From an uncultured Eubacteriales bacterium (lineage in GTDB: Bacteria > Bacillota > Clostridia > Oscillospirales > CAG-272), in NCBI GenBank assembly GCA_934525675.1, contig CAKSZH010000011.1, positions 25,173 to 89,172 of the forward strand: a DNA stretch of 64,000 nt, in the 5' to 3' direction. Below, piece by piece: positions 1,531 through 42,304 of the stretch. The notes beneath the pieces are model-generated. The model did not search any database. It was not told the DNA's origin and saw only the letters and a program-made list of their open reading frames with translations. Both the position numbers and the translations under genes were made by a program. Positions within the stretch are counted from its first letter, which is position 1, and each line of letters starts with the position of its first letter.

Positions 1531-1589
1531 TCTGCATAGGCATCGATTTGCCGGATCATACGTTAGTTCGTTTTCACATTCAGACTCTC

Positions 1590-1910: not shown

Positions 1911-1967
1911 ATGTCATGCCGGATCTCATCCGGCGGCTTGTACCGATCAAAGGAGGATTTCATACAT

Positions 1968-2279: not shown

Positions 2280-2310
2280 ACCGTCTGATCGTAACGACCG
2301 AAGGTGTGAA

Positions 2311-2868: not shown

Positions 2869-2934
2869 CGGTCAGCCGTTTTCCCGGTTTCGGGTTTCTG
2901 ACGGACAGATTTTAATTACTTTTTTGGGGGCATT

Positions 2935-3198
2935 ATGGAACAGAAATTTCGTTCTTTTGACGAATTGTTTGAAACAATGACCAGAGGAAATGAGGTTGTA
3001 TTCGAGTGGGACGGTCGCAGGTACTGCTTATTTGCGGAATTCGAGGGGCAACGGCAGACAGGGTATCTGATCGGACCGACTTACAGTGAAGAGATGACTT
3101 TTTGTAAAAACAAGCAGGAACTGAGCCAATACCGGATCGGCGGTCGGAGTTTTTGCGATATTGTTCCGGAAATTTGTGTGATTGAACGGACCATATAG
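2935..3198 (+). CDS. Hypothetical small cytoplasmic protein
   Basis: 87-aa ORF with an ATG start, same strand and spacing as its neighbours. No family recognised. Confidence 0.45.
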   Translation: MEQKFRSFDELFETMTRGNEVVFEWDGRRYCLFAEFEGQRQTGYLIGPTYSEEMTFCKNKQELSQYRIGGRSFCDIVPEICVIERTI

Positions 3199-3288
3199 AT
3201 TTCTGATATCGGGAAGTGATGGGACGGGAACCGCGGAATGCTCCTTGCGCTACGGCGGATCCGATGACATGAAAACGGAGGACGACTT

Positions 3289-3576
3289 ATGCAGAAAACA
3301 AAACATCTCGCTTTGAAGATTACGCTGATCGTACTTGCGTGCTTGCTCCTGGCAATTATCATCTGGGTGTCAGATATTCTGATTTATACTTATAATCATT
3401 TTGTTGTTCCGACGGAAATGGAATGCGAACATTGTCATCAGGTAAAAACCAGCCGTTGGTATCATGACGAGCTCGGATTAAGAATGTGCGAAGATTGCCA
3501 CAAGGCTTACAATCGGGGAGAGTGGGGCGACGATTCCGGGACCACTGTACCCGGTATGACCGAACGGGGGAACTGA
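3289..3576 (+). CDS. Hypothetical membrane-anchored zinc-ribbon-like protein
   Basis: TM helix ITLIVLACLLLAIIIWV followed by CEHC...CEDC (CxxC-N18-CxxC). The stop overlaps the next start (ATGA at 3574-3578). Confidence 0.55.
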   Translation: MQKTKHLALKITLIVLACLLLAIIIWVSDILIYTYNHFVVPTEMECEHCHQVKTSRWYHDELGLRMCEDCHKAYNRGEWGDDSGTTVPGMTERGN

Positions 3577-4292
3577 TGCGATCCGTGGAGGAGATAAAAG
3601 AGATGATACACGCCAATCGTAAAATGCAGGAGATTTTGTCCCGGCGCGACAGCGCCCCGGCGTCCTTGTCTTTTATCCGGGAAATAGATGACTTTGTCGC
3701 AGGTTCCGGGGAACGGGTGGGGTGTATCCTTGCAACCGACTGCAATCCGGAGTATTCTTTGACGGATATACGGAAAGTGTATCAGGACCAGACCGGTTAT
3801 GAATGCTGTTGCAATGAATTTTACATTTGCCCGGAAGAAATAGATGGTCATTACGCCTGGACAATCCGGACATTGTTGGATCGGTTCGTCCGGAATCTGG
3901 AAAAGAAATACCCGGGCGAAATTTTTTGCCTGATATGCTCTGTTGGCATTCAGGAGGAGCTTGACGGAATTACGGCACGCTTCCATTTGTACCGCGAGGG
4001 CGAATTCTACATCTGCAAAGATCTGGAGGGTTTCCCCGAACCGGTTCTGTATTGTATATTCGGAGCCCCGGAAGTTTCGCCGCGTGAACATGAGTCCCGG
4101 AAACCGTCAGAGGTGGATGCCGATGGAGAATCAAGCGGGGAAGCTTTCCGTGCGTCGGGACCGGGAAGCATCCGCAGCACTTCCCGGCAGGAACTGACCG
4201 GACATCCCTCCCGCCCTTGTAAAACGTCCCGCGCTGTGGTATACTGGAAACAGAAGCGGCAGCGCGGTACGATAACCCGCGCTTTGCCATAG
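3576..4292 (+). CDS. Hypothetical protein with a Cys-rich core and a disordered GC-rich tail
   Basis: In-frame ATG at 3576 within track ORF 3486..4292, coupled to the upstream gene. The last ~70 codons are compositionally different (GC-rich, Ser/Arg/Pro-rich), so the true C-terminus is uncertain. Confidence 0.45.
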   Translation: MRSVEEIKEMIHANRKMQEILSRRDSAPASLSFIREIDDFVAGSGERVGCILATDCNPEYSLTDIRKVYQDQTGYECCCNEFYICPEEIDGHYAWTIRTLLDRFVRNLEKKYPGEIFCLICSVGIQEELDGITARFHLYREGEFYICKDLEGFPEPVLYCIFGAPEVSPREHESRKPSEVDADGESSGEAFRASGPGSIRSTSRQELTGHPSRPCKTSRAVVYWKQKRQRGTITRALP

Positions 4293-15914: not shown

Positions 15915-15955
15915 AAAACGCCCGTACCTCTTTTTTCGGAGGTACGGGTTCTTTA
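15915..15955. terminator. Bidirectional rho-independent terminator between pyrI and the convergent acyltransferase gene
   Basis: aaaaaacg-cccgtacctc-ttttttcg-gaggtacggg-ttcttt: 10-bp stem with an A-run upstream and a T-run downstream. Confidence 0.75.
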
Positions 15956-15982: not shown

Positions 15983-16834
15983 TTATTTGTTCGCCGGCTC
16001 CGGCTTGACATCCACGTTCCCGAGACGCTCCTCGCAGGCGACCATCAGCTCTCTTGCCGCCGCACTGATTTCACGGTCGTTGTGCGTGCGGATAAATTCC
16101 TCGTCAAAGGTGCCGAGAATGTCCATACGTACCCGCGTCGCTCTCCACGGTCCCCGGCGGTGTACATCCCGGGAGCCCGACATATGTACAACAACGACCG
16201 GTACCTTCGCCCGCTTCGCGGCAAAGAATACGCCGTCGTGGAAGGGAAGCAGTTCCCCGGTGCGGCTTCTCGTCCCCTCCGGAAAAATACTGTAGGACAG
16301 TTCCCCCGCCTCCATTGCAAGAGATGCGTTGCGGATGGTGCGTACCGCGTTCATCGCGTTTTCCCGGTCGATCGGCAAAAACGCGCTTTCCTGCAGATAC
16401 CTGCCGATCACCGGGATCGCATAGTTCTCCGGCTTGGAAATGAACGCGAGTTTGTGGCGGCGCAGTTTAACCATCATGGTCATGTGATCGTAATTGGAAA
16501 GATGATTGGATACAAGCAGGAACGTCTTTCCGGGCTTCGGCAGATGCTCGGTTCCCGTCACTGTTACCCGGACCCGCATGAAGCGGAGGGCAATGGAGTA
16601 CGCCTCAATCAAAAGAAACCGGTAGAACGGGTTCTGCGGGCGGCGATCCGGCGAGGGCGGATCCACCTTTTTAATCGCAAGCGACGCAATGATCGCAAAA
16701 AGGAAAAACAGTGTACAAAACGCGACAACGTACCCGAAAAACAAGGGGATGGCATACAGAAAATGCATATGCGTGCAAAGCACGGTGACCGCTGCCCCCA
16801 CAAGGGACAGAACGGGAATCAGAACGGAAATCAT
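15983..16834 (-). CDS. 1-acyl-sn-glycerol-3-phosphate acyltransferase family protein (PlsC-like)
   Basis: N-terminal TM helices. HX4D motif NHLSNYD. FPEGTRS motif. Confidence 0.8.
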   Translation of the reverse strand: MISVLIPVLSLVGAAVTVLCTHMHFLYAIPLFFGYVVAFCTLFFLFAIIASLAIKKVDPPSPDRRPQNPFYRFLLIEAYSIALRFMRVRVTVTGTEHLPKPGKTFLLVSNHLSNYDHMTMMVKLRRHKLAFISKPENYAIPVIGRYLQESAFLPIDRENAMNAVRTIRNASLAMEAGELSYSIFPEGTRSRTGELLPFHDGVFFAAKRAKVPVVVVHMSGSRDVHRRGPWRATRVRMDILGTFDEEFIRTHNDREISAAARELMVACEERLGNVDVKPEPANK

Positions 16835-16844
16835 GACATCCTCC

Positions 16845-17438
16845 TCATTGAACGTTGCTCTCCGGGTGGAACAGCTGCGGAATCACCCGGATTCCCTCCA
16901 GCATCAGCCCGGTAATCAGGCGCGAAACCTCGTCAAACGGCAGCTGTTTGCCCTCCCGGATCCAATCCACGTAAACGGCGGCGGCGCCGCCGATGAAATA
17001 TTCCAGCGCGGCGGATGCGGCGCTTTCCCTGCCTTCCGGGACGACGATGGAGTGCAGGATCTGATCCTTGAGCACCTTTTTAAGCTTGTCCGCAATAAAA
17101 GTATAATTGCGCATGGAGACCAGATTTTCGAAAAACTGCGGATTGCTCGCGTAGAGGGTGTTAATAAATTGAAGAAAATGCTGCGGACCGAGACTGTATT
17201 CGTCGATCATCACGTCCTCAAAAAAATAGGCGATGCTTCCGACAATCTCATCCTCCAGCTCTGAGAGAATCTCTTCGGGGCTTGTGTAATGCGAGTAAAA
17301 AGTCTTGCGGTTGATGCACGCCGCGTCCGCGATCTCCTTGACCGTGATCTGCGACAGCGGTTTCTCTTCCAGAATTTTCAGAAGCGCGGACCGGATCTCC
17401 CGCTTGGTTTTGATGACGCGTTTGTCTTCCTGATTCAT
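16845..17438 (-). CDS. TetR/AcrR family transcriptional regulator
   Basis: Internal ATG (MNQEDKRVIKTKREIRSALLKILEEKPLSQITVKEIADAACINRKTFYSHY) gives the typical TetR HTH. The track ORF extends to 17510. Confidence 0.85.
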   Translation of the reverse strand: MNQEDKRVIKTKREIRSALLKILEEKPLSQITVKEIADAACINRKTFYSHYTSPEEILSELEDEIVGSIAYFFEDVMIDEYSLGPQHFLQFINTLYASNPQFFENLVSMRNYTFIADKLKKVLKDQILHSIVVPEGRESAASAALEYFIGGAAAVYVDWIREGKQLPFDEVSRLITGLMLEGIRVIPQLFHPESNVQ

Positions 17439-17538
17439 GCGCGATTCCTTCCGATGAAATTTTTGGAGAAGGTCACGGTTAAGTAACACATCCGTCCGTA
17501 TCTGTCCCATAAACCCCGTTCACGAAAACCCGTGACCG

Positions 17539-17567
17539 TTGACAACCTGTCCGGACTATGGTATATT
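17539..17567 (+). promoter_or_regulatory. Near-consensus promoter of the patatin/ACP/KS operon, divergent from TetR
   Basis: TTGACA (17539-17544), 17-nt spacer, TGgTATATT extended -10 (17562-17567). Confidence 0.7.
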
Positions 17568-17635
17568 ATAAACCACAGGAGAAGAAAAAGCAACACCTGA
17601 TACTTATTTTCCGTCTAAAAAATCGGAGGAAAATC

Positions 17636-18496
17636 GTGAGCGAGAATAAAATCGGACTGGTTCTGGAGGGCGGTGCGCTCCGCGGCGTGTTTACCGCGGG
17701 GGTGCTCGATTACCTCATGGAGGCGGGGGTGACGTTCCCGTATGTCGTCGGCGTTTCCGCCGGCGCGGGAAACGCCGCGGACTTCGTTTCCGGGCAGATC
17801 GGCAGAACCCTGCGCGTCATTACGCATGAGAACGCCGACCCGTACTACGGCCTCGGTCAGCTTTACCGGAGCGGTACTCTGCTTGACCTGGACATTATGA
17901 CATATGAATATTCCTACCGCCAGATCCCGTTTGATTTCGGCACGTATTTTTCTTCGCCGACCGAATGTGAGTTTGTGGTTGCCAACTGCGAAACGGGGCT
18001 TGCGGAGTATCGCAGTGCGGACGAATCGGAGGAACGGCTGCTTGCCCTGTGCAAGGCGTCCTGCTCCATCCCGCTCATCTGCAAGCCGGTCATCATCGAC
18101 GGTAACTACTTCCTTGATGGCAGCCTCATCGACTCGGTTCCCGTCGCCCACACGCTGGAAAAATGCGACAAGGCGGTCGTGGTCCTGACCCGGTACGGCG
18201 ATCAGCCTCCTACCGACTACGCGCGCATCCGGTCACTGCTCAACATCAGTTACCGTTCGCGCTTCCCGAAACTGGTGGACGCCATGCTCCGCCGTAAGGA
18301 GGTCTACGCCCGGCAGATGGCACAGCTTGAAGCCTATGAAAGAGAGGGCAGAGCATTTGTTATCCGTCCCGAGAGCATGAGCATCAGTCATTTTGAAAAC
18401 AATACGGAAAAAATCGGCGTGTTCTATCGCCACGGTAAAGAGGTCATGGAAAAGCACATGAACGATTTGCGGGCATTTCTGGAGGGCAGGGCATGA
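17636..18496 (+). CDS. Patatin-like phospholipase
   Basis: GTG start 5 nt after GGAGGA. Oxyanion motif GLVLEGGALRG. Nucleophile GVSAG. The track ORF starts at 17558. Confidence 0.85.
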   Translation: MSENKIGLVLEGGALRGVFTAGVLDYLMEAGVTFPYVVGVSAGAGNAADFVSGQIGRTLRVITHENADPYYGLGQLYRSGTLLDLDIMTYEYSYRQIPFDFGTYFSSPTECEFVVANCETGLAEYRSADESEERLLALCKASCSIPLICKPVIIDGNYFLDGSLIDSVPVAHTLEKCDKAVVVLTRYGDQPPTDYARIRSLLNISYRSRFPKLVDAMLRRKEVYARQMAQLEAYEREGRAFVIRPESMSISHFENNTEKIGVFYRHGKEVMEKHMNDLRAFLEGRA

Positions 18497-19161
18497 AAAC
18501 GCTCCGGAAAATCGGCAACGCAATCCTCACGGGACTTCTTCACGCAGTATTCTTCCTCTGGGGAGGCGTGACGCGGCTTTTGTATTTCCCGCGCGTGGAG
18601 TGGACGGACAAATCCGCCAAAGACGCAATGAAGCAGGGCGCGATCCTCATCTCCAACCACAAAAGCCACAAGGACGGCTTCTTTATCCCGCAGATGCTTC
18701 CCGCAAAACGCATTTATGTGCTGGTCACGCGGAAGTGGTATGACAAGAAGGGGCTGAATCCCATCTTCCGCCGTCTCAGATATATTCCGATCGACTTAAA
18801 TTCCCCCGACGGCGACAGCGAATGGATGCAGAAAACCGAGGAGGTTCTGAAAAAAGGACACAGCGTCCTCATCTTCCCGGAGGGAAAACTGGAAAAGGAT
18901 GAGGTACCGGAGCCGTTCCATGCGGGATTTCTGCTTCCCGCAAGGCATCTGGATGTCCCCGTGATCCCCATGGCGACCGTGGGTACATACCGCCCGTTTC
19001 ACCGTCAGATACTCCGTATCGGCTCCCCCTTCACCCCGGCGCTCCACGAAAAGGGTCGCCTCTCGCAGGTGCTCGGCGCCGCCTCGGAGGACTGCAAAAA
19101 TCGCGTGTTTTCGCTCCGCGACGGAAAAACACTTCCCGCGGACGACCGCGTGGGCGTGTGA
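18493..19161 (+). CDS. Lysophospholipid/glycerolipid acyltransferase family protein
   Basis: HX4D motif NHKSHKD and an FPEGK motif. ATGA overlap with the patatin gene. Confidence 0.8.
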   Translation: MKTLRKIGNAILTGLLHAVFFLWGGVTRLLYFPRVEWTDKSAKDAMKQGAILISNHKSHKDGFFIPQMLPAKRIYVLVTRKWYDKKGLNPIFRRLRYIPIDLNSPDGDSEWMQKTEEVLKKGHSVLIFPEGKLEKDEVPEPFHAGFLLPARHLDVPVIPMATVGTYRPFHRQILRIGSPFTPALHEKGRLSQVLGAASEDCKNRVFSLRDGKTLPADDRVGV

Positions 19162-19234
19162 CGCCCCCCGATTACTTTGTTTTGCAACCCATGCAAATAA
19201 ATTAAGATTGAATCGAAAGAAAGGAACCAAGGCT

Positions 19235-19483
19235 ATGAACGAACAGGAAATCGCAACCAAGATCAAGGAGCTGCTTTGCAGCAATCTCGGAATTGACGCG
19301 GATGCTCTCACCGATGACATCCCGCTTTTCAGCGACGGTATCGGACTCGACTCCATCGACTCGCTTGAGATCATTGCCGCGATCGACGAGACCTTCGGCG
19401 TTTCCATGACGGGTGTCGGCAAAGAGCCGTTCTACAACGTCAAGAGCCTTGCCGCTTACGTTGCGGCGCACATGGCAAACTGA
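19235..19483 (+). CDS. Acyl carrier protein
   Basis: 82 aa. Phosphopantetheine attachment motif GLDSIDSLE. Internal ATG of track ORF 19208..19483. Confidence 0.85.
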   Translation: MNEQEIATKIKELLCSNLGIDADALTDDIPLFSDGIGLDSIDSLEIIAAIDETFGVSMTGVGKEPFYNVKSLAAYVAAHMAN

Positions 19484-19637
19484 CGGGGAAAGGGGGCTGC
19501 CGCAATTTTTGTGACAGCCCCCGCGTCAGAAATCCGATCAATACGGAATTCCGTGCGGACATTCCGTTTCATATATTTTACGAAATAACCAGTAATAAAA
19601 CGCCGGCGGGTTTTGCGCCGGAAAAGGAGAGAAACAT

Positions 19638-21986
19638 ATGACAAGCAAAGAAAATCGCTGTGTGGTAACGGGGCTTGGTCTTGTCAGCGCGATCGGCGGC
19701 AATGTCGCGGAGTGCTGGGAGAATGCCATCCGTTCCGTCAGCGGGATCAGAGAAACAAATACGGTCGATACCGAAAACTGTTATGCAAACCTTGCGGCGG
19801 AAGTCCGCGACCCCTCTGTCGATGAGGTGCCGGGCGCCGCGGACATGGACCGCGCATCCCGTCTTTGCGTCAAGGCGTCCGCGGAAGCTATGCGCGACGC
19901 GGGACTGGAGACCTTCGGCGATTCGACCCGTGCAAGCGTTATTATGGGCAGCTGCGTCGGCGGCGTGGTCAGCGTGGAGCATTACTACAAGAACGGCAAG
20001 CCTGCGTCCGACGTGGTGAAAATGCCGATCTCCGCGATTGCGAATCAGGTCGCACGCACCTTCGGTGCGGGCGGCGTTGTGACCAACGTGGCAAACGCCT
20101 GCGCGGCGGGCACCATCAGTATTGCCTATGCCTGCGACCTCATCCGCGCGGGAAAGGCGGATGTCGTCATTGCCGGCGGTGCGGACGCATTCGCGTCGGT
20201 GCCGTATGCGGGATTCCTGTCGCTCCATGCGCTGGATGCACAACCCTGCTCCCCCTTCAACCGTTGCAGCGGTATCACGCTCGGTGAAGGCTCTGGCACT
20301 GTCATCGTCGAATCCTACGAGCACGCAAAGGCGCGCGGCGCGAAGATTTATTGCGAGGTGCTGGGTGCCGGCGTCAGCAGTGACGCGCACCACATCACCG
20401 CTCCCCGTCCCGACGGAGAAGGGCAGATGCACGCCATCCGCCGCGCACTCGAAAATTCGGGCCTTACGCCCGCCGATGTGGGCTACATCAACGCGCACGG
20501 AACCGGTACCGCCAAGAACGATGAGGCGGAATTCCTGTCGCTTCACACCATCTTTGACGGTCAGAACGATGATCTCACCGTGACCTCCACCAAAGCCATG
20601 GTCGGTCACTGCCTCGGCGCCGCAGGCGCAGTCGAAGCGGTGTTTGCCATCAAGGCGCTGACCGAGGGAATCATTCCCCCGACGGTCGGTTACACCGAGG
20701 AGGATCTGCCCCGCCTTCAAGAGCGTGCGGGCAAGATTGACTTCTGTCCCAACAAGGCAGAAAAGAAAGAGCTGACGAGCGTCATGAGCAACTCCTTTGC
20801 GTTTGGCGGCAACAACGCAAGCATCCTGTTCTCCAAGACCGAGGGAAATGTACAGCTTCCCGAAAAACGCGAGCGCATCTTTGTCACGGGCCTTGGCATC
20901 GTCTCCCCGATCGGCAACGGCGTGGAGAATTATGTGGACACCGTCAGGGCGGACAAGACGCTTGAGGTGACCTCGGCACAGAGCGCGGTCGGTCAGGCGG
21001 ATTATGCCGCGTGCAATCTCAAGATGGCGTTCTACCGCAAGCTCGATAAGTTCAGCCAACTGCAGGCAGTCTCCGGCATGAGCGCGCTTCTTGACGCGAA
21101 CCTGACCGTGACCGACGAAAACGCGACCGACATCGGTATCGTGGTCGGCACCTCGGACGGACCGCTGTCCACCGTCTGCAATTATGAAGAGGATCTGGTT
21201 GCCAAGGGCAACGCGGCGGGCAGTGCCTTCAAGTTCCCCAACACCGTGTACAACGCGGCGGGCGGCTACCTGTCCATCTGCTCCGGCATCCGCGGCTACA
21301 ACGTCACCGTGACGAGCGGCACCCAGTCGGGGCTTGCCAGCATCGCGTATGCCGTGAACGTCATCCGGAGCGGTCAGGAGAAGGCGGTCCTTGCGACGGG
21401 TACCGATGAAAACAGCGAGATCATCACGGAGCTTTATGAAAAGCTCGGCTGTGTCACCGACGGAAAGAGCGACGGCTTCCGTCTCTCCGACGGCAGTACC
21501 ACGATGGTGCTGGAAAGCGAATCCGGCATGACGGCGCGCGGCGCGAAGGCATACGCCGAAGTCCTCGGCTACGGCATGGCGACAAAGCCCGTTCCGTTCG
21601 GAACGCTTGCAGGCTCGGGCGAGGCGCTCGACGAAGCGATCAGCGCCGCGCTCTCCGACGCCGGTCTTACCGCAAATGACATCGACGGCGTGGTCGGTTT
21701 TGCCGACGGTAAGAAGGTCGTGGATGACATGGAAGCGGCTTCGCTTGCCCGTGTGTTCGGCGACAGAAAACTCCCCGTTTTCAATATCCACAGATATGTG
21801 GGTGAGGGCAGAGCCGCGACCGCGGCACTTTCCGCCGCACACGCCGCGCTCCTGCTTTCGGGCAGACTCGGCGACGAGGTGAAGAGCGAGAACCTCGGTA
21901 CGGTCAGAGCGGACAACCTCAGCAGGCTGCTGGTCATCTCCTACGGTGCCGGCGGCTCCTATGCGGCAGTCATTCTCTCGAAATAA
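19638..21986 (+). CDS. Fused beta-ketoacyl synthase: active KS domain plus Cys-less KS-like (chain-length-factor-like) domain
   Basis: The N-terminal half has ANACAAGT (Cys), SDAHHITAP (His) and NAHGTGT (His). The C-terminal half aligns (ASIAYAVNVIRSG vs ISIAYACDLIRAG) but has TSGTQSG at the Cys site and GFADGKK at the second His site. Confidence 0.85.
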   Translation: MTSKENRCVVTGLGLVSAIGGNVAECWENAIRSVSGIRETNTVDTENCYANLAAEVRDPSVDEVPGAADMDRASRLCVKASAEAMRDAGLETFGDSTRASVIMGSCVGGVVSVEHYYKNGKPASDVVKMPISAIANQVARTFGAGGVVTNVANACAAGTISIAYACDLIRAGKADVVIAGGADAFASVPYAGFLSLHALDAQPCSPFNRCSGITLGEGSGTVIVESYEHAKARGAKIYCEVLGAGVSSDAHHITAPRPDGEGQMHAIRRALENSGLTPADVGYINAHGTGTAKNDEAEFLSLHTIFDGQNDDLTVTSTKAMVGHCLGAAGAVEAVFAIKALTEGIIPPTVGYTEEDLPRLQERAGKIDFCPNKAEKKELTSVMSNSFAFGGNNASILFSKTEGNVQLPEKRERIFVTGLGIVSPIGNGVENYVDTVRADKTLEVTSAQSAVGQADYAACNLKMAFYRKLDKFSQLQAVSGMSALLDANLTVTDENATDIGIVVGTSDGPLSTVCNYEEDLVAKGNAAGSAFKFPNTVYNAAGGYLSICSGIRGYNVTVTSGTQSGLASIAYAVNVIRSGQEKAVLATGTDENSEIITELYEKLGCVTDGKSDGFRLSDGSTTMVLESESGMTARGAKAYAEVLGYGMATKPVPFGTLAGSGEALDEAISAALSDAGLTANDIDGVVGFADGKKVVDDMEAASLARVFGDRKLPVFNIHRYVGEGRAATAALSAAHAALLLSGRLGDEVKSENLGTVRADNLSRLLVISYGAGGSYAAVILSK

Positions 21987-22103
21987 GAGCACCGGTCAGT
22001 CATATCCCGGGGTGCTTCCGGGGGCGGACTGCCGGGATGCCGGGCGGACAGATCAGACGAAGCCCGGAGTATCAAATATTCCGAAGAAAGGAATCACGAA
22101 ATC

Positions 22104-22835
22104 ATGAAGGTTGCGGTTGTTACCGGCGCGTCCCGCGGAATCGGACGTGCCGTGGCGGAACGTCTTGCCGCCGACGGCTATACGGTCGTCATCAATTACA
22201 GTCACAGCGAGGAGGCGGCAAAAGAGGTACTGGAGGGAATCCGTTCCCGCGGCGGCGACGGCATGATCGTCAAAGCCGACGTGTCGGTCTTGGACGAGGT
22301 CAGGCGCATGATCCGCGAGGTCACCGCGGCATACGGACAGATCGACGTGCTCGTCAACAATGCGGGCATCGTCCGCGACGAGTATCTGCTTATGCTGAAC
22401 CCGGAAACGCTTGACAAATGCGTGGATCTCAACATCAAGGGCTACCTTTACTGCGCCCAGCAGGCGGTGCTCAAAATGTTCCGCAGGAAATCCGGCGTTA
22501 TCATCAATATGTCGTCGGTCAGCTCCCGCATGGCGCTGGCAGGGCAGTGCGTGTACAGCGCAACCAAGGGCGCGGTCAACTCCATGACGGCGACCATGGC
22601 GAAGGAGCTGGCACCCTACGGTATCCGCGTCAACGCGGTCGCACCCGGCTTCATTGAGACCGAGATGATCGACGCGCTTCCCGCGGAAAAGAAGGAAGAG
22701 TATCTGAAGGAGGTCCCGCTCGGACGTTTCGGACGCGCCGGGGACGTGGCGGCGGTCGTTTCCATGCTGGCAAGCGATGCCTGCGCGTATATGACGGGAC
22801 AGACGCTCGTGCTGGACGGAGGACTGTCGCTATGA
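22104..22835 (+). CDS. fabG: 3-oxoacyl-ACP reductase (SDR)
   Basis: VTGASRGIGRA cofactor motif. SxnYxxxK (YSATK). 243 aa. Confidence 0.9.
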   Translation: MKVAVVTGASRGIGRAVAERLAADGYTVVINYSHSEEAAKEVLEGIRSRGGDGMIVKADVSVLDEVRRMIREVTAAYGQIDVLVNNAGIVRDEYLLMLNPETLDKCVDLNIKGYLYCAQQAVLKMFRRKSGVIINMSSVSSRMALAGQCVYSATKGAVNSMTATMAKELAPYGIRVNAVAPGFIETEMIDALPAEKKEEYLKEVPLGRFGRAGDVAAVVSMLASDACAYMTGQTLVLDGGLSL

Positions 22836-23284
22836 TGAACATCGTGGACATCAACAGCCGCATCAAACAGCGCCCGCCGTTCCAGATGATCGAGCGCGTG
22901 ACCGACCTGACCCCCGGCGAGAGCGCGGAGGGTATCAAGAACGTTTCGGTCAACGAGCCGTATTTCATGGGACATTTTCCGGGAGCACCGATCATGCCGG
23001 GCGTGCTCATCATCGAAAGCTGTGCGCAGCTCTGCTCGCTCGTCATCGAGGAAGCCCCCGACGAAAATCATTTGTATGTCCTCCTCAAGGTGGACAATTT
23101 CAAGTTTGTCAAGCCGGTGATTCCGGGTGACACGCTTCACATCCATGTAACCAAGACCCGCGCGGCGGGACCTCTCACCTCGTTTGACGCGGTGGTGACG
23201 GTGGACGGTGCAGTGCGCGCCAAGGGGTCGATGACTTTTACCGCGGTGCCGAAGGAAACGGTGTTCGGTCATCCGGAGGCGTAA
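22832..23284 (+). CDS. fabZ: 3-hydroxyacyl-ACP dehydratase
   Basis: Hot-dog motif YFMGHFPGAPIMPGVLIIES. ATGA overlap with fabG. Confidence 0.9.
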   Translation: MMNIVDINSRIKQRPPFQMIERVTDLTPGESAEGIKNVSVNEPYFMGHFPGAPIMPGVLIIESCAQLCSLVIEEAPDENHLYVLLKVDNFKFVKPVIPGDTLHIHVTKTRAAGPLTSFDAVVTVDGAVRAKGSMTFTAVPKETVFGHPEA

Positions 23285-23296
23285 ACCGCGCGGCAT

Positions 23297-23413
23297 CGGG
23301 CAAACAAGACCGCGCGGCGCAGGTGCCGGGCGGACACCCGGCGGGCAGCCCGGCAAACGAAACCCGACGTGGAGCAGGCAACACCGGGCAAACAGCCCGG
23401 CAGCCGGGCAAGC
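23297..23413 (+). repeat. Four copies of a C(C)GGGCAA(A/G)C decamer in the fabZ-fabD spacer
   Basis: cgggcaaac at 23297, cccggcaaac at 23349, ccgggcaaac at 23384, ccgggcaagc at 23404. Confidence 0.7.
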
Positions 23414-23508
23414 GGGACCGTGCCGGAAAAAGAGAATCCGGCGCACGGCGCAATGCCGGGTACTATCAAGGAAAGGAAATCTTCCCGACGGGAAGAGGGG
23501 ATACATCC

Positions 23509-24432
23509 ATGAAAAAGATCGCTTTTCTGTTTGCGGGACAGGGCGCGCAGAGCGCGGGCATGGGCAAAGACCTTTACGGGGCGAATGCCGGGGCGCACGC
23601 GCTGTATGATAACGGCGAGGCGCTCCGTCCGGGAACGCTTCAGACCTGCTTTGAGGGCCCCGGCGACGAGCTGACCAGAACCGAAAACGCACAGCCCTGT
23701 CTCTTTCTCACCGACCTTGCGTTTGCAGAGGCACTGGAAGAGGCGGGCGTGCACGCGTCCTTTGCCGCAGGCTTTTCGCTCGGCGAGATCCCCGCGCTTG
23801 CGTTTACGGGCGTACTCTCCTTTGCGGACGCGTTCCGTCTTGTGACGCTTCGCGGCGAGAGCATGGCAAAGGCGGCAATCGAGCATCCCGGCTCCATGGC
23901 GGCTGCGCTTAAATTGGACAATGAGACCGTCGAATCCGTCTGCCGCGAGTTCCGGGAAATCTGGCCCGTCAACTACAACTGCCCGGGACAGCTTTCCTGC
24001 GCGGGCAGTCTTGACGAGCTGGACGCATTCTGCGAGCGCATCAAGGCATCTGGCGGCAGAGCGGTGCGTCTTGCGGTCAGCGGTGCGTTCCACACCCCGT
24101 ATCTGAGCGGCGTGACCGACATTCTTGCCGGCGCTTTGGAAAAGATGGACGTGAAGGCTCCCCGCATTCCGCTGTACGCGGATCTGACCGGCGAACCTTA
24201 CCCCGCGGACGCGGAGGGAATCCGGGCAACCGTGTCAAGGCAGGTGTCCTCCCCCGTGCGCTGGGAGAAGGCTGTCCGCGCCATGAAGGACGCGGGAGTT
24301 GAGGCGTTCGTGGAGGTCGGACCCGGCAAGACCCTCACGGGACTGGTGAAGAAGACCTTCCCCGATGCGGAAACGTACACGGTCAACGACATTCCGTCCC
24401 TTGAGGCGGCGGTCGCGGCACTGAAGGATTGA
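23509..24432 (+). CDS. fabD: Malonyl-CoA:ACP transacylase
   Basis: MKKIAFLFAGQGAQ start. Active-site GFSLGE. The track ORF 23323.. includes a non-coding-looking extension. Confidence 0.9.
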   Translation: MKKIAFLFAGQGAQSAGMGKDLYGANAGAHALYDNGEALRPGTLQTCFEGPGDELTRTENAQPCLFLTDLAFAEALEEAGVHASFAAGFSLGEIPALAFTGVLSFADAFRLVTLRGESMAKAAIEHPGSMAAALKLDNETVESVCREFREIWPVNYNCPGQLSCAGSLDELDAFCERIKASGGRAVRLAVSGAFHTPYLSGVTDILAGALEKMDVKAPRIPLYADLTGEPYPADAEGIRATVSRQVSSPVRWEKAVRAMKDAGVEAFVEVGPGKTLTGLVKKTFPDAETYTVNDIPSLEAAVAALKD

Positions 24433-24479
24433 TCCCACGGGCAGAATACCCGGGAACGGATCGGATAGGAGAGAACCGA

Positions 24480-25310
24480 ATGGAAACAATGTCCTTAAAG
24501 CACCTGACGCTTGCGGATTACCTCGGAAGCGACAGGACGGTCAGATGCGAGAAATGTAAAGAAGAACTCAAGGAAAGCGAGCTTGCCGCAGGGTCGTTTG
24601 TCTGCCCCCTTTGCGGCAAGTACAACCGGATGCCCGCACGCGTCCGCATTGAATCGCTTGTCGATGAAGGTTCCTTTGAGGAAATGTGGGAAAATGTTGT
24701 CGGCGGAGACCCGATCGGTTTTCCCGATTATCCCGCGAAATGCGAGTCGTCGAGAGAGAAGAGCGGCGAGAGCGAGGGCGTTCTTTGCGGAAGAGCAAAG
24801 ATTGGCGGACACAGGACCTGCCTTTTTGTCATGGAATCAAAGTTTATGATGGGCTCCATGGGCACGGTGGTCGGCGACCGCATCACCGCACTGTTTGAAT
24901 ATGCAACGAGAGAGAAACTGCCCGTGGTCGGCTACACGGTGTCGGGCGGTGCCAGAATGCAGGAGGGAATGCTTTCGCTCATGCAGATGGAGAAGACCTC
25001 CGCGGCGATCCGCCGTCACAACGACGCGGGACTGTTTTACCTCGTTTCCGCGACCGACCCGACCACGGGCGGCGTGACCGCGAGCTTCGCCATGCTGGGG
25101 GATGTCATCATCTCGGAGCCGGGCGCGCAGATCGGCTTTGCCGGCAAGCGCGTGGTGGAGCAGGTGACGGGCGAAAAATTGCCCGAAAACTTCCAGAGCG
25201 CGGAATTTCAGCTCGAAAACGGCTTCCTCGACGCAATCGTTCCCCGCGGGGAACAGCGCGCGTTTGTCCGCCGTATGCTGGAATTTCATGAAGGGGGGAG
25301 ACAAGCATGA
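24480..25310 (+). CDS. accD: Acetyl-CoA carboxylase carboxyltransferase beta subunit
   Basis: N-terminal zinc ribbon CEKC...CPLC. RBS GGAGAG upstream of the ATG at 24480. Confidence 0.9.
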   Translation: METMSLKHLTLADYLGSDRTVRCEKCKEELKESELAAGSFVCPLCGKYNRMPARVRIESLVDEGSFEEMWENVVGGDPIGFPDYPAKCESSREKSGESEGVLCGRAKIGGHRTCLFVMESKFMMGSMGTVVGDRITALFEYATREKLPVVGYTVSGGARMQEGMLSLMQMEKTSAAIRRHNDAGLFYLVSATDPTTGGVTASFAMLGDVIISEPGAQIGFAGKRVVEQVTGEKLPENFQSAEFQLENGFLDAIVPRGEQRAFVRRMLEFHEGGRQA

Positions 25311-26170
25311 GCAACGAAGTGAACGAAATGTCCGTATATGACAAGATCCGCTGTACCCGTAAGGCGGGACGCGCCACGGCAGTGGATTACATCGGCGGAA
25401 TCTTCACGGATTTCACCGAACTGCACGGCGACCGCCGCTTTGGCGACGACCACGCGATTGTCGCGGGAATCGCAAAGTTGGACGGAAAGCCCGTCACGGT
25501 CATCGGAATCGAAAAAGGTCATGACCTGACCGAGCGGATGTACCGCGACTTCGGCTGTGTCCTTCCGGAAGGTTACCGCAAGGCGCTCCGCCTGATGAAG
25601 GAGGCGGAGAAGTTTCATCGTCCCGTCGTATGCTTTGTGGATACCCAGGGCGCAAGCTGCGGCAAGGGCGCGGAGGAAAGAGGCGAGGGCGCCGCAATCG
25701 CGGAGAATCTTTATGAAATTTCCGGGCTCAGAACCCCCGTCATCACGGTGATGATCGGTGAGGGCGGAAGCGGCGGCGCACTTGCGCTTGCCGTGGCGGA
25801 CGAGGTCTGGATGCTGGAGAACGCTTATTATGCGGTGGTTTCCCCCGAAGCCTGCGCAAGCATTCTCTTCAAGGACGCGTCGCGCGCGGACGAGGCGGCG
25901 GAGCATCTGAAGCTGACGGCGAATGATCTCTACGGCTTCGGCATCGTGGAAAAGATCATTCCCGAGCCGAAGGATTTCCGCGACGCGGACGAGGTGGCAA
26001 AGCTGATGAAGCACCTGTCCCGCGAGCTGTCCGCAAAGCTGCATTCGCTTGCAAAGCTTGACGACGAAGCACTGCTTGCCGCGAGATACGAAAAGTACCG
26101 CAAGATCGGCAGATATGAAGAGATCGCCGCGGCGCCGACCGAAAGGCATCGGTTCTTCCGCCATGGATAA
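25307..26170 (+). CDS. accA: Acetyl-CoA carboxylase carboxyltransferase alpha subunit
   Basis: GGSGGALAL motif. ATGA overlap with accD. Confidence 0.9.
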   Translation: MSNEVNEMSVYDKIRCTRKAGRATAVDYIGGIFTDFTELHGDRRFGDDHAIVAGIAKLDGKPVTVIGIEKGHDLTERMYRDFGCVLPEGYRKALRLMKEAEKFHRPVVCFVDTQGASCGKGAEERGEGAAIAENLYEISGLRTPVITVMIGEGGSGGALALAVADEVWMLENAYYAVVSPEACASILFKDASRADEAAEHLKLTANDLYGFGIVEKIIPEPKDFRDADEVAKLMKHLSRELSAKLHSLAKLDDEALLAARYEKYRKIGRYEEIAAAPTERHRFFRHG

Positions 26171-26936
26171 TTCCTTGAACTCTCCCGCGTGGACCTGGGG
26201 TGAACGGCGGGACACAAAAAAGATTCTGGTGCTCAACGGCAGCCCCCGCCGGGGAGGGAGCGCGACTATGCGCGTGACGGGCGCGTTTCTTCGCGGCGTG
26301 ACGGAAACCGCCCCCTGTGAAGTGGAAACGCTGAACGTTTCCGACCTTCACATCAAGCCCTGCATGGGCTGCCTTTCCTGCTGGGGAAGGACCGAGGGGA
26401 CCTGCGTGATCTCGGACGATGACATCCCCGCGCTCAAGCAGAAGATTCTTGACGCGGATGTGATTCTGCTCAGCTATCCGCTGTATTTCTTCGGAATGCC
26501 CGGAACCGTCAAGGTTATGACCGACCGTCTGCTTTCCATGCTGTGTACCTACCGCGGGCAGAAGCCGGTCGAGGGCGAGTCCTTTCACGGAATCCGTTAC
26601 GATATGTCGGGAAAGCGTTTTCTGCTGGTTTCCACCTGCGGTTATGCACAGACCGACCTGATCTATGACGCACTGCTCCGTGAGTACGACTGCATCTGCG
26701 GCACCGGTGGCTATCAGGCGTTGCTTTGCCCGCAGGGCAAGGTGTTTTCGGCGCCGGAGCTGCGCGACCGCACCGACCTGTTTCTTGAAAAATTCACCCG
26801 TGCGGGCGAGGAATTTGCAAAGAACGGCGTGCTTTCGGAGGAAACACTGAAGCATTTGCAGGAGCCGCCGTTCAATGAACGCAGGTTCCGGCTTCTGCTG
26901 AACAAATTCTGGAACGACGAGAAAAACGGACACTGA
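26163..26936 (+). CDS. Flavodoxin-fold NAD(P)H-dependent FMN reductase / iron-sulfur flavoprotein-like protein
   Basis: KKILVLNGSPRRGGS...CMGCLSCW...LLSYPLYFFGMPG. Internal ATG overlapping the accA end. The start is uncertain. Confidence 0.65.
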   Translation: MDNSLNSPAWTWGERRDTKKILVLNGSPRRGGSATMRVTGAFLRGVTETAPCEVETLNVSDLHIKPCMGCLSCWGRTEGTCVISDDDIPALKQKILDADVILLSYPLYFFGMPGTVKVMTDRLLSMLCTYRGQKPVEGESFHGIRYDMSGKRFLLVSTCGYAQTDLIYDALLREYDCICGTGGYQALLCPQGKVFSAPELRDRTDLFLEKFTRAGEEFAKNGVLSEETLKHLQEPPFNERRFRLLLNKFWNDEKNGH

Positions 26937-27062
26937 CGAACCGTGCAGCTTCATCCGGTAATTGCCGGTCGTGTCGCCGCTCCTGTACCCGCAGACGAAA
27001 AAACGGAAGTTTCCCGGGAAAAGTTTTCCCGGCGGAAAAACGACAGAAGGGAGACCGCTTTT

Positions 27063-27809
27063 ATGTTCTGGAAAAAGTTTGAAATCCGTTTCAGTGAGAC
27101 CGACGAAAGCGGCTGTCTTTCCATGTCGGGGCTTCTCCGCCTGTTCCAGGACGTGGGATATTTTCACGCGCTGGCAAGAGGCAGAGGGAACACTCCCGTA
27201 AGAACGTCATCCGGCACCGTGCCGGCTCCCGCGGAAAACCAGAAGCGGACGTGGTATCTGCTCTCCTGGCACATTGAAGCCATGAGAATGCCCGTCTGCG
27301 GCGAGGCGGTTACGGCGGAGACCTGGATTTATTTTTCCGGCGGCTCCATCGCAAAAAAGCAGCTGCTCCTCCGTTCCGCGGACGGCGAGATCCTTGCCGT
27401 CGGCGATACGCGCTGGGTGTACATGGATGTGCTGACGGGACAGCCCGCCATCCCGCCGGAGGGCGTCTGGCTTCCGGAGGACTTCGGCGAGCGGCTGCCG
27501 CTTGCAGAAAAGGTGGAGCGGCTTCGCCCGCGCCGCCCGACGGACGCGGAAACCGTGGCGCTTCCGCACGACTGTGTGGACGCGCGGCTCCTTGACATCA
27601 ACCATCACGCCAACAACGTGCTCTTTACCGAGTACGCCATGACGCTCGCTTCCAGGCGGACGGGGTGCCGTTTCCTTGCGGCGGAGTTTCTCCGGCAGGC
27701 GAAGGCGGGCGCGGAGCTTTGCCCGTATCTTTCCTCTGACGGAGAAGGGAAAACCGTGACGGTCACGGACGGGGAGGGAACTCCTTATGCCGTGTTCCGC
27801 TTTGTGTGA
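27063..27809 (+). CDS. Acyl-ACP thioesterase family protein
   Basis: MFWKKFEIRFSETDESG...LLSWHIE...LDINHHANNVLF. Double hot-dog thioesterase pattern. Confidence 0.78.
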   Translation: MFWKKFEIRFSETDESGCLSMSGLLRLFQDVGYFHALARGRGNTPVRTSSGTVPAPAENQKRTWYLLSWHIEAMRMPVCGEAVTAETWIYFSGGSIAKKQLLLRSADGEILAVGDTRWVYMDVLTGQPAIPPEGVWLPEDFGERLPLAEKVERLRPRRPTDAETVALPHDCVDARLLDINHHANNVLFTEYAMTLASRRTGCRFLAAEFLRQAKAGAELCPYLSSDGEGKTVTVTDGEGTPYAVFRFV

Positions 27810-28018: not shown

Positions 28019-28050
28019 AGAACCACCGTTTTGCACGGCGGTTCTTTTTT
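28019..28050 (+). terminator. Rho-independent terminator after the lipid cluster
   Basis: agaaccaccg-ttttgca-cggcggttct stem (one mismatch) followed by tttttt. A weaker T7-tailed hairpin also lies at ~27908-27947. Confidence 0.6.
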
Positions 28051-28065
28051 GCCGCTCTTTGTCGA

Positions 28066-28094
28066 TTGACATGCGGCGGGGTTCGTGGTATAAT
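28066..28094 (+). promoter_or_regulatory. Consensus promoter of map
   Basis: TTGACA (28066-28071), 17-nt spacer, TGgTATAAT (28089-28094). Confidence 0.75.
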
Positions 28095-40858: not shown

Positions 40859-42304
40859 TCAGTTGTGCTTGAGAATCCCGATTGCATCGGAAATGCGCTT
40901 CTCGTGCGCGAGCTTTCCGTATTCGTCTACTTCGGCACGGTTCTTCTCTCCGTGCGTCAGGCATCCGGCACCGCCGATACAACCGCCGACGCACGCCATG
41001 CCTTCAATGAAGTTGGCATCCAGCACGCCCTTGGAAAGCCGGAGCAGTGCCATGCGGCATTCCTCAATGCCGTCGCAGGAGACCGGCTTGTAGTCAAATT
41101 CCGTGTCCCCGTGTTCGGCAATCCCTTCGCGTACCGCGTCGGCAAGTCCGCCGCTGCGTGCAAAGATCCGCCCGAAATAGGACGCATTGTCAAGCGAGTT
41201 TTCTTCAAGCGACATAATGTCAATGTCCCGGCTGTCAAAGAGCGCCTGCAATTCCTCGAAGGTGATCACGCTGTCCACGTAAGGGCGCACCTCCGGCTTC
41301 TGAAACTCCATTTTCTTTGCGGTGCAGGGACCGATGAAAACGACACGTGCCTTGTCGTCGGAGGATTTGATGTATTTTGCGATCGCAGCCATCGGAGAGA
41401 GCGTTCCGGAAACCAGATCGGCAAGCGCGGGGAACTGCTTCTTGACATATGCCACGAACGCAGGACAACAGGAGCTGGTCAGCTTACCCTTCTTCACCAG
41501 CTCGCGGGATTCCTCATCCGCAACCATATCCGCGCCGAGCGCCGCTTCCACAACGGTGTGGAACCCGAGCGCCTTGATGCCGGATACTACCTGACCAAGC
41601 TTTGCATAAGTGAACTGACTGGAGATGGACGGCGCGACCACCGCGTATACGCGGGTCCCGGCGGCAGGACTTTTCTTGAGAAGGTCAATGACGTTGAGGA
41701 TGTACGATTTGTCCGAAATGGCACCAAACGGGCACTGGTAAACACAGGCGCCGCAGGAAATGCACTTTTCGTTGTCGATGGATGCGGCGCTGTCGGCGTT
41801 GACCGAGATCGCCTTGACCTTACAGGAGCTGACGCAGGGACGCTTGAAATTCATGATCGCGCTGTACGGACAGACCTTGGCGCACGCGCCGCACTCCACG
41901 CATTTGGTTTTGTCGATGTGGGCGACGTGGTTTTCGTCGAGCGTGATCGCTCCGCGGCGGCAGACATCCTCACAGCGGTGTGCAAGACAGCCGCGGCAGG
42001 CGTTGGTCACCTCGTAGCCGCCCATCGGGCATTCGTCGCAGGCGATGTCGATGACCTCGATGACATTGGGGTTTTCCTTGTTTCCGCCCATGGCGAGCTT
42101 GACGCGCTCTCCGAGAATCGCACGCTCCTTGTAGACACAGCAACGCATGGTCGGCACCTTGCCGGGGGCAATGATCTTGGGAATGTCCGTCACCTTTTCA
42201 AGCAGCGTTCCGTTCCAGGTGCATCTTGCAACCTCGCGGAGCACCTTGTATTTGAGATGCTGGACTTTGGTATCGAATTTTCTCAGCTTCGGGGTATCCT
42301 GCAT
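40859..42304 (-). CDS. [FeFe]-hydrogenase with canonical H-cluster motifs and N-terminal multi-[4Fe-4S] region
   Basis: L1 TSSCCPAF, L2 GPCTAKKME, L3 EGMACVGGCIGG. Ferredoxin motifs CVECGACAKVCP and CISCGACVYQCP. Confidence 0.85.
   Translation of the reverse strand: MQDTPKLRKFDTKVQHLKYKVLREVARCTWNGTLLEKVTDIPKIIAPGKVPTMRCCVYKERAILGERVKLAMGGNKENPNVIEVIDIACDECPMGGYEVTNACRGCLAHRCEDVCRRGAITLDENHVAHIDKTKCVECGACAKVCPYSAIMNFKRPCVSSCKVKAISVNADSAASIDNEKCISCGACVYQCPFGAISDKSYILNVIDLLKKSPAAGTRVYAVVAPSISSQFTYAKLGQVVSGIKALGFHTVVEAALGADMVADEESRELVKKGKLTSSCCPAFVAYVKKQFPALADLVSGTLSPMAAIAKYIKSSDDKARVVFIGPCTAKKMEFQKPEVRPYVDSVITFEELQALFDSRDIDIMSLEENSLDNASYFGRIFARSGGLADAVREGIAEHGDTEFDYKPVSCDGIEECRMALLRLSKGVLDANFIEGMACVGGCIGGAGCLTHGEKNRAEVDEYGKLAHEKRISDAIGILKHN

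Follow-up and report, generated by a model that had tools for sequence, protein, structure and literature searches.

We analysed a 64-kb stretch of DNA from an uncultured Eubacteriales bacterium (hereafter the window), in which positions 15983-27809 hold a cluster of lipid genes. The cluster is most likely a TetR-controlled operon serving a distinct form of type II fatty-acid synthesis (FAS II) that is conserved in many species. Gene identities were assigned using Pfam and NCBIfam scans of the translated open reading frames (ORFs). Starts were corrected using public gene calls on identical metagenome contigs and by inspection of ribosome-binding sites and ATG codons; several of the mechanically derived ORFs were overlong. 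The scans confirmed the gene list, order and strands of an earlier reading made from the letters alone (the sequence-only reading). The genes and signals of the cluster are the following:

15920-15949, both strands: bidirectional terminator, which parts AT1 from the upstream pyrimidine operon
15983-16834, minus strand: AT1, PlsC/LPLAT-family membrane acyltransferase, 283 residues (PF01553, E=2e-26)
16845-17438, minus strand: TetR-family regulator, 197 residues (TetR_N and TetR_C_8; public gene call)
17479-17494, no strand assigned: Box 1, TTAAGTAACACATCCG, putative TetR operator ahead of the promoter
17539-17567, plus strand: sigma-70-type promoter, TTGACA-17-TATATT with extended TG (11/12 match)
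17585-17603, no strand assigned: Box 2, AAAAAGCAACACCTGATAC, putative operator immediately after the -10 element
17636-18496, plus strand: patatin-like phospholipase with DUF6363, GTG start (PF01734 and PF19890)
18493-19161, plus strand: AT2, second PlsC/LPLAT-family acyltransferase, motif HKSHKD (PF01553, E=2e-20)
19235-19483, plus strand: acyl carrier protein (ACP), 82 residues, motif GLDSIDSLE (PF00550)
19638-21986, plus strand: KS–KS′, ketosynthase (KS) fusion, 782 residues (two ketoacyl-synt N+C domain pairs)
22104-22835, plus strand: FabG-type 3-oxoacyl-ACP reductase (adh_short_C2, E=1e-62)
22832-23284, plus strand: FabZ, 3-hydroxyacyl-ACP dehydratase (NF000582, 136.3, above the cut-off of 113)
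23509-24432, plus strand: FabD, malonyl-CoA:ACP transacylase (PF00698; TIGR00128, 250.8 against a cut-off of 260.9)
24480-25310, plus strand: AccD, carboxyltransferase beta (Carboxyl_trans and Zn ribbon; TIGR00515, 291.9 against a cut-off of 317)
25307-26170, plus strand: AccA, carboxyltransferase alpha (NF004344, 361, cut-off 357; TIGR00513, 335.6, cut-off 319.3)
26163-26936, plus strand: Flav, Fe-S flavodoxin-fold protein, 257 residues (Flavodoxin_2/FMN_red, PF02525/PF03358)
27063-27809, plus strand: acyl-ACP thioesterase, FatA/B-type hot-dog fold (PF01643)
28025-28054, plus strand: terminator-like stem-loops with a T-run, which close the operon ahead of the 12/12 promoter of the next gene

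The operon is supported by one strong promoter, several translational couplings and one terminator. The first description of many ATGA overlaps is fair, although they are not at most of the junctions: three are present (patatin/AT2, FabG/FabZ and AccD/AccA); AccA and Flav also overlap (ATGGATAA), and the other junctions are gapped by 47-225 nt. AT1 lies downstream of TetR in the same orientation, and this divergent pair does face a near-consensus promoter as had been proposed. The HX4D motif of AT1 is HLSNYD at residue 111, accompanied by FPEGTRS, and the protein scores under all NCBIfam equivalog cut-offs. The patatin motifs GGALRG, GVSAG and DGS are intact. Between the ACP and KS–KS′ genes (19484-19637) a strong GC stem-loop (GGGGGCTG...CAGCCCCC) stands right after the ACP stop codon and a second hairpin stands before the KS gene. 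Neither has a T-run; they may be processing or stability elements which raise ACP output relative to the enzymes. No regulatory RNA was found within the cluster using Rfam.

The -35 and -10 columns of the promoter are conserved in an alignment of the TetR–patatin spacer from eight species (the window and L005, L007, L008, L009, L014, L024 and L085), whose proteins are only about 65% identical between species. Shuffled regions yield about 3.6 weaker promoter-like sites each in the promoter scan; given this background, the promoter at 17539-17567 is credible because of its position and conservation. Mapping of the TetR operator within 17439-17635 had been suggested by the sequence-only reading. 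An inverted-repeat search of this spacer returned nothing, and both boxes emerged from the cross-species comparison. A box related to Box 1, (A/G)GTAACAnATGT, is found upstream of the -35 element in the seven other species, and its counterpart in L014 is a perfect 16-bp palindrome (GGTAACAAATGTTACC). In Box 2, AAAAAGCAACA..TG is invariant in 8/8 species aligned. The core pattern of Box 2 occurs once in the window; the evidence for this box is its conservation and not its count, because shuffles often match too (29/100 give at least one match). The two boxes are good candidates and likely TetR operators, phylogenetic footprinting being a pointer and not a proof. In 22 related loci, too, a TetR gene is transcribed divergently from the operon.

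Fatty-acid synthesis functions encoded at the locus

Most of the defining features of FAS II are found at the locus. These are a discrete ACP (PF00550) with the phosphopantetheinyl serine motif GLDSIDS, an elongating ketoacyl-ACP synthase (KAS) of type I/II with a Cys-His-His triad, and FabG and FabZ for keto-reduction and dehydration. Of the proteins for malonyl supply (FabD and the four-subunit acetyl-CoA carboxylase), FabD, AccD and AccA are encoded here. Two defining features are absent: an initiating KAS III (FabH), which is found neither in the window nor in 79/80 related loci, and an enoyl-ACP reductase (ER) of a known class, which is not found in the window, FabK being seen among the 80 loci in L080 alone. 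The canonical arrangement is exemplified by the clostridial/streptococcal order fabH-acpP-fabK-fabD-fabG-fabF-accB-fabZ-accC-accD-accA, which is partially present in L080 (14944-18214). With canonical FAS II the locus shares the ACP, the FabF-type KS, FabG, FabZ, FabD and AccD/AccA and, in relatives, a link to PlsX. It differs from it in having no KAS III, no FabI/K found and no AccB/AccC at the locus, in its divergent ACP, in the fusion of KS to an inactive KS-like domain and in the constant presence of an Fe-S flavodoxin-fold protein.

We searched the window by tblastn using FabH, FabK, FabI, AccB and AccC, and the matches were merely FabG, a short-chain dehydrogenase/reductase (SDR), and CarB, an ATP-grasp protein. 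The same set of FabH, FabK and FabI queries recovered genuine FabH and FabK in L080, as confirmed by Pfam. Pfam scans of 38 window ORFs, which included all those above 200 residues from a GC3-based filter, revealed no FAS gene outside the cluster. No NMO/FabK homologue and no second SDR is present in the window, FabV not having been searched for explicitly; the absence of FabH, FabI/K and AccB/AccC from the 64 kb, as first noted, thus holds with this limit. Biotin carboxylase and its carrier protein are probably encoded elsewhere, because the operon has FabD, AccD and AccA but no AccB/AccC. In nine relatives AccB and AccC lie inside the cluster.

Residues 1-400 of the fusion protein are a FabF-like KS, scoring just under the cut-off of TIGR03150 (490.3 vs 493.75). 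Cys155 (ACAAG), His252, His287 and Lys319 of this half are kept in 74/74 sequences from different species, and each of the 73 loci whose gene is full-length retains Cys-His-His. In the second half (KS′, residues ~405-782), Gln563 is aligned to Cys155, and Gln is found at this position in 70 of the 74 sequences. The second catalytic position of KS′ holds Asp or Asn, the second His being gone in all relatives, and in the KS′ of the window the first catalytic position, too, is without His. The second KS domain had been described as a Cys-less partner resembling a chain-length factor (CLF), and Gln563 in the Cys position agrees with this. Judged by these residues, KS′ is CLF-like in its logic, a silent partner expected to pair with the active KS as a pseudo-heterodimer. 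As for descent, its sequence places it outside the CLF clade of polyketide synthases (PKS): among solved structures FabF is the nearest to KS′ (E=1.5e-31), and the actinorhodin CLF gives E=5e-13.

Three other origins of the fusion were considered and rejected. An actinomycete-type CLF was set aside as KS′ is closer to FabF, and a recent internal duplication as the KS and KS′ halves are only 28% identical. A polyunsaturated fatty acid (PUFA) synthase was rejected on the lack of a megasynthase architecture, on the TIGR02813 score (108 bits vs a cut-off of 1010) and on the presence of just two KS-type domains. PUFA synthases (PfaC-type KS–CLF didomain, PfaD) do share a KS and a CLF-like domain in one chain, and they make fatty acyl chains anaerobically; they differ in being multidomain megasynthases with tandem ACPs, a FabA-like dehydratase and an NMO/FabK-fold ER, whereas here every activity beyond the two KS-type domains resides on a separate protein.

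The KS–CLF systems (actinorhodin, 1TQY; ishigamide-type, 6KXD; aryl-polyene; cyl/granadaene) share with the locus an active KS with a Gln-for-Cys partner, and FabG- and FabZ-like enzymes acting on a dedicated ACP. In these systems KS and CLF are separate subunits of the PKS clade, whereas here one polypeptide holds both domains and KS′ is nearer to FabF. The partners also differ, here being acetyl-CoA carboxylase (ACC), FabD, PlsX, thioesterase and a reductase candidate, with no conserved cyclases, transporters or glycosyltransferases. Aryl-polyene clusters likewise have an LPLAT-type acyltransferase nearby.

Concerning chain initiation, the suggestion that KS′ primes synthesis by malonyl decarboxylation is weakened by the loss of catalytic His residues and by the nearness of KS′ to FabF rather than to the actinorhodin CLF. 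With its second His lost, we treat KS′ as an unproven decarboxylase, and self-priming by the active KS as at least as likely. FabB/FabF-type KSs are reported to self-prime (PMC10869286). The known FabH-independent routes (malonyl-ACP decarboxylase MadA/YiiD; self-priming by Pseudomonas putida FabB, PMC10869286; Pseudomonas aeruginosa FabY) share with the locus a start without KAS III, either a KAS I/II-type enzyme or malonyl-ACP decarboxylation starting synthesis. They differ in that no YiiD-type hot-dog or GNAT protein is found here, and the fused KS–KS′ is unlike the FabY/FabB architecture.

The family of Flav is labelled merely 'flavodoxin family protein' in public databases, and no NCBIfam model reaches significance for Flav. 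Its Cys motif C67-X2-C70-X2-C73-X7-C81 (CX2CX2CX7C; CMGCLSCWGRTEGTC) is kept in 65/65 sequences of different species; C159, R122 and R145 are conserved in 64-65 of the 65 and K117 nearly always. A compact CX2CX2CX4-7C-type motif is typical of iron-sulfur flavoproteins (Isf), and the motif of Flav, which has this form, is compatible with a 4Fe-4S site. The AlphaFold (AF2) model built on a 31-homologue alignment is confident (predicted local distance difference test, pLDDT, 90.5; predicted template modelling score, pTM, 0.89), the single-sequence model having a pLDDT of 41.7. A flavodoxin-like fold binding flavin mononucleotide (FMN) is indicated by PF02525/PF03358, by AF2 and by Foldseek, whose matches include FLR. 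In Foldseek the model resembles FMN azoreductases, NQO1/2 and WrbA-like proteins (probability 1.0, TM ~0.55).

The nearest solved protein by sequence is FLR of Flavonifractor plautii (7D38), with E=5.7e-10 over ~100 residues; the alignment covers the FMN-phosphate loop and the Cys-rich segment in the N-terminal region. FLR is a gut-bacterial FMN ene-reductase: the beta-carbon of an alpha,beta-unsaturated carbonyl receives a hydride from it, and a C-terminal extension makes it specific (PMC7862272). In the AF2 model Flav likewise has a helical C-terminal extension. FLR (PDB 7D38-7D3B; PMC7862272) and the Isf/WrbA-like reductases share with Flav the FMN flavodoxin-like fold and this extension. 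FLR saturates a C=C bond conjugated to a carbonyl, as an ER needs to do; the gene context suggests the same chemistry for Flav. FLR differs in that only ~100 residues align (TM ~0.45). It acts on free flavones, its gene is not part of a FAS gene set, and in its assay Fre provided the FMNH2. By sequence and predicted fold, Flav belongs to the Isf/FLR-like flavodoxin-fold reductases.

A profile search with Flav against 1.84 billion representatives gave 302 clusters at E≤1e-30, many of the best matches being 530-620 residues long. Ten longer relatives were sampled out of the 150 best matches to the profile. Seven of these are fusions of Flav to the lipid-binding domain SCP2 (P0382, P0386, P0389, P0393, P0446, P0492 and P0500), one is a Flav–GDSL lipase fusion (P0369), one an AccA–Flav fusion (P0371), and one has no Pfam-detectable second domain. 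Together these comparisons show a family of reductases and suggest that it handles lipid-like substrates. The Flav–SCP2 proteins of 530-620 residues are a sizeable uncharacterised family in their own right.

Spread of the core genes and their neighbours

We used one genome per GTDB species for the survey, and 80 loci were retrieved; the 13 proteins of the cluster served as tblastn queries, and the ORFs were clustered all against all. At least 570 of 600 matched stretches were confirmed by tblastn. The 120 best relatives are all two-domain proteins of 764-828 residues with 63-99% identity, nearly all from gut or rumen metagenomes. KS–KS′ relatives number thousands, and one 90% cluster contains 6345 members. 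The constant core among the 80 loci is ACP–KS/KS′–FabG–FabZ–Flav. A synteny survey had been suggested at the outset, and the core indeed recurs in at least 570 GTDB species, across Clostridia, Mollicutes-like Bacilli and Treponema. The 80 loci are from Ruminococcus, Lachnospiraceae (isolate G41 among them), Butyrivibrio, Oscillospiraceae (isolate P7 among them), Christensenella-like and Acutalibacteraceae genomes, Erysipelotrichaceae, Acholeplasmatales, Anaeroplasma, 'Mollicutes' and Treponema. The operon architecture of the window is that of L085, a prevalent human-gut species (1.69-Mb contig).

Flav is present in 72/80 loci; in six of the other eight the contig stops on the side where Flav would be expected. 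It frequently stands directly after FabZ or overlaps it, and a search begun from Flav homologues returns to KS/KS′ clusters. In L061, nucleotidyltransferase-like and VanZ-like genes follow FabZ in place of Flav. The other genes found with the core are distributed as follows:

FabG: 70/73 loci
FabD: 37 loci
AccD/AccA: 21 loci, plus 15 with a fused AccDA
AT2, adjoining the ACP gene: 40 loci
Patatin: 19 loci
TetR: 22 loci
Thioesterase after Flav: 7 loci (L005, L007-L009, L024, L083, L085)
Sfp-type phosphopantetheinyl transferase (PPTase) between FabZ and Flav: 9-11 Oscillospiraceae-type loci
AMP-binding ligase upstream of ACP: Butyrivibrio-type loci
TldD/PmbA pair between FabD and AccD: some close relatives

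The TldD/PmbA-type peptidase pair (L005, 9267-11953; L009, 8022-10714; L085, 15428-18114) is not found in the window and has no obvious link to lipids. The AMP-binding enzyme of the Butyrivibrio-type loci, which resembles acyl-AMP/CoA ligases (L048, 6829-8349; equivalents in L055, L067, L074 and L077), lies directly upstream of ACP together with a third acyltransferase. This arrangement suggests that it loads a pre-formed acid as starter.

Nine Mollicutes-like, Acutalibacteraceae and Erysipelotrichaceae loci have the order ACP–KS/KS′–FabG–FabZ–Flav–AccB–AccC–AccD–AccA–FabD, and some of the loci with AccB/AccC add the biotin transporter BioY, a second ACP and a BirA-type biotin ligase. PlsX stands directly after Flav in 11 loci; in L087 it scores above the TIGR00182 equivalog cut-off, with a DegV/FakB protein beyond it. 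None of these fuller operons (AccBC, BioY, BirA, PlsX) contains FabH or an ER of a known class. ORF clustering shows no transporter, glycosyltransferase, extra dehydratase, cyclase or aryl-starter gene to be conserved with the core. Transporters, glycosyltransferases, further dehydratases and aryl-starter genes are hallmarks of aryl-polyene or cyl/granadaene clusters (PMC4315905). FabH and FabK are near only one of the 80 loci, L080 (8110-18214, an Oscillospiraceae metagenome-assembled genome). There KS/KS′–FabG–Flav, without FabZ, lies ~3 kb upstream of fabH–fabK–fabD–fabG, with an AraC regulator and a PEBP-family gene between the two sets.

The versions with AccBC/BirA/BioY and with PlsX/FakB look like the main FAS of the cell. 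Those of Oscillospiraceae look auxiliary because they have a private PPTase and neither FabD nor ACC, and the set in L080, beside fabH–fabK, looks auxiliary too. The family seems to be used both ways, housekeeping and auxiliary.

Proposed pathway and alternative readings

We read the locus as a non-canonical FAS II with Flav in the slot of the ER, a reading to which we give an even chance. The non-canonical character of the cluster, which the sequence-only reading had put forward, is upheld. In the proposed pathway TetR, probably sensing an acyl-thioester, would gate one long transcript. AccD/AccA, with biotin carboxylase and biotin carrier protein from elsewhere, would make malonyl-CoA, and FabD would load the malonyl group onto the dedicated ACP. 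The single KS–KS′ chain would perform every condensation as an intramolecular pseudo-heterodimer in which the FabF-type KS is active and the CLF-like KS′ is not. The first condensation would take place without FabH, its primer probably coming from decarboxylation of malonyl-ACP by the condensing enzyme. FabG would then carry out keto-reduction and FabZ dehydration, and Flav, with FMN and an Fe-S centre, would reduce trans-2-enoyl-ACP using electrons from NAD(P)H or from reduced ferredoxin by way of the 4Fe-4S cluster. The saturated acyl-ACP would be released by the thioesterase or transferred to glycerolipids by AT1/AT2, for which patatin would provide lyso-lipid acceptors. The pathway may be the only FAS of the cell.

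Flav as the missing ER is proposed from gene context and homology. Of the earlier ideas, that of the flavoprotein as a surrogate reductase has gained the most: Flav is conserved like FabG and FabZ, it is often coupled to FabZ, and its nearest solved relative is an ene-reductase. A wider proposal has somewhat less than an even chance. Under it Flav would be a new class of ER with a flavodoxin fold, FMN and 4Fe-4S, which together with KS–KS′ would give hundreds of cultured and uncultured gut and rumen anaerobes a primary membrane-lipid FAS independent of FabH and FabI/K/L/V. No publication describing the cluster, the KS–KS′ fusion or the role of Flav was found in the literature searched, which left out most subscription journals.

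Several points weigh against this pathway, the first being that all its steps are predicted. The assignment of Flav rests on gene context and on distant homology (E=5.7e-10, ~100 residues), and its best fold matches are azo- and quinone reductases, FLR having just rank 46. KS′ is without the His residues usually needed for decarboxylation, which leaves the priming mechanism uncertain. The ACP is below every AcpP equivalog cut-off (best match NF006617), and FabG is under the housekeeping equivalog level (TIGR01830, 265 vs a cut-off of 298). AccB and AccC are missing from the window, and canonical FabK/FabI and FabH could sit elsewhere in the genome. In L080 a KS/KS′–Flav cluster coexists with fabH–fabK. 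The Oscillospiraceae versions, with their own Sfp-type PPTase and without FabD and ACC, resemble secondary metabolism. Two loci (L026 and L061) have the KS/KS′–FabG–FabZ core and enough flank, with no Flav nearby.

Several of these points would also fit a standard housekeeping FAS II whose genes are divided among separate chromosomal sites, with FabH, a known ER and AccBC elsewhere and Flav as an accessory; we regard this as unlikely. AccB/AccC must lie elsewhere, so the pathway is split in any case. Coexistence with a canonical FAS is possible because L080 carries both, fabH–fabK–fabD–fabG lying ~3 kb from KS/KS′–FabG–Flav, and the top fold matches of Flav would suit a co-transcribed quinone or electrophile reductase. 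Flav could also be a FabX-like dehydrogenase/isomerase for anaerobic unsaturated fatty acid synthesis. Helicobacter FabX, an enzyme of unsaturated fatty acid synthesis with FMN and 4Fe-4S, is a precedent for this pair of cofactors in FAS outside the ER step; however, FabX has a FabK/NMO fold and not a flavodoxin fold. It is also hard to explain why an accessory protein should match FabG and FabZ in conservation, being kept in 72/80 loci from three phyla-level groups. Moreover, a known ER is never found inside the cluster, even alongside AccBCDA, FabD, BioY, BirA or PlsX.

The co-transcription of patatin and two LPLAT-type acyltransferases with the synthase is what an elongation or remodelling system would show, which we consider rather improbable. 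Such a system would extend pre-formed acyl primers, hence the lack of FabH, with KS′ setting chain length and the acyltransferases re-installing the chains; possible primers are short- and branched-chain acids of the gut or rumen, fatty acids from the diet and chains that patatin releases. PlsX/FakB is the Firmicutes route which turns exogenous fatty acids into acyl-ACP, and L087 ties the operon to PlsX and DegV/FakB; the Butyrivibrio-type loci have their AMP-binding ligase directly upstream of ACP. The operon of the window, however, has no acyl-ACP synthetase/ligase and no FakA/B, and Mollicutes-like loci without lipase and acyltransferase genes still keep the full core and ACC. In addition, KSs of the FabF/FabB type are reported to be capable of self-priming (PMC10869286).

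A PKS-like polyene or unsaturated pathway without enoyl reduction, in which the acyltransferases would anchor the product to lipid and Flav would be a tailoring redox enzyme, has a slim chance: a KS with a Cys-less partner, FabG, a FabZ which also matches the ApeI-like family, a dedicated ACP below AcpP cut-offs, an adjacent LPLAT acyltransferase, the PPTase of Oscillospiraceae loci and the similar FabD/FabG/ACP/FabZ/KS/PPTase logic of the cyl operon (PMC4315905) agree with it, but it is disfavoured because primary membrane-lipid partners (AccBCDA, BirA, BioY, PlsX, FakB and a FatA-type thioesterase), not pigment-type genes (transporter, glycosyltransferase, second dehydratase, adenylation/aryl-starter gene), travel with the core, and because KS′ is nearer to FabF than to the actinorhodin CLF and a reductase-fold Flav is in the core, often right after FabZ. 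The polyene or unsaturated product considered by the sequence-only reading has thus lost ground.

If Flav does act as ER in this non-canonical FAS II, several consequences follow. The ER is the step of FAS II with the most non-orthologous replacements and the target of triclosan, isoniazid, afabicin and FabK inhibitors, which are under development as microbiome-sparing drugs. An extra class of ER in abundant commensals would alter predictions of which gut species are spared and which are hit by such drugs. Carriers called fatty-acid auxotrophs or assigned 'incomplete fatty-acid synthesis' for their lack of FabH and FabI/K would need re-annotation; these would range over Oscillospirales-like Clostridia, Lachnospiraceae, Christensenellales, RF39/Acholeplasmatales-like Bacilli and Treponema. 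In a primary FAS, the fusion of KS to a CLF-like domain would represent a surviving transitional form that links FabF homodimers to the KS–CLF heterodimers found in PKS, and a tractable system for chain-length control by a silent partner and for KAS III-free initiation. If electrons of ferredoxin enter via the Fe-S cluster, lipid synthesis would be wired to fermentation redox balance, which is undescribed for FAS II. L026 and L061 would be useful natural tests of the dispensability of Flav.

Regions flanking the cluster

The ORFs upstream of the cluster are pyrC, carAB, pyrD, pyrF, pyrE, pyrB and pyrI. Those downstream encode methionine aminopeptidase, MatE pumps, alcohol dehydrogenases, [FeFe]-hydrogenase-like proteins, AdhE, LysR, Rex and glycosidases. 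The methionine aminopeptidase has an N-terminal SEC-C zinc motif and is preceded by a perfect 12/12 sigma-70 promoter with a TG extension (28066-28094). On the minus strand at 40859-45209, an [FeFe]-hydrogenase-like protein with PAS, a SpoIIE/PP2C phosphatase and a second hydrogenase-like protein stand in a row adjoining AdhE (46604-49246); this row looks like a sensory-hydrogenase signalling module.

The left end of the window (1-4000) has a lower GC content (49-50%, compared with 58-60%) and carries small ORFs and a tRNA-Ser (434-523). Other samples of the species have a different segment here (L088/L089, 1-9900), with small proteins resembling Imm53 and PM0498; small ORFs, GtrA and CysS lie beyond the left edge of the window. 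This end of the window is apparently a variable island that borders the pyrimidine operon.

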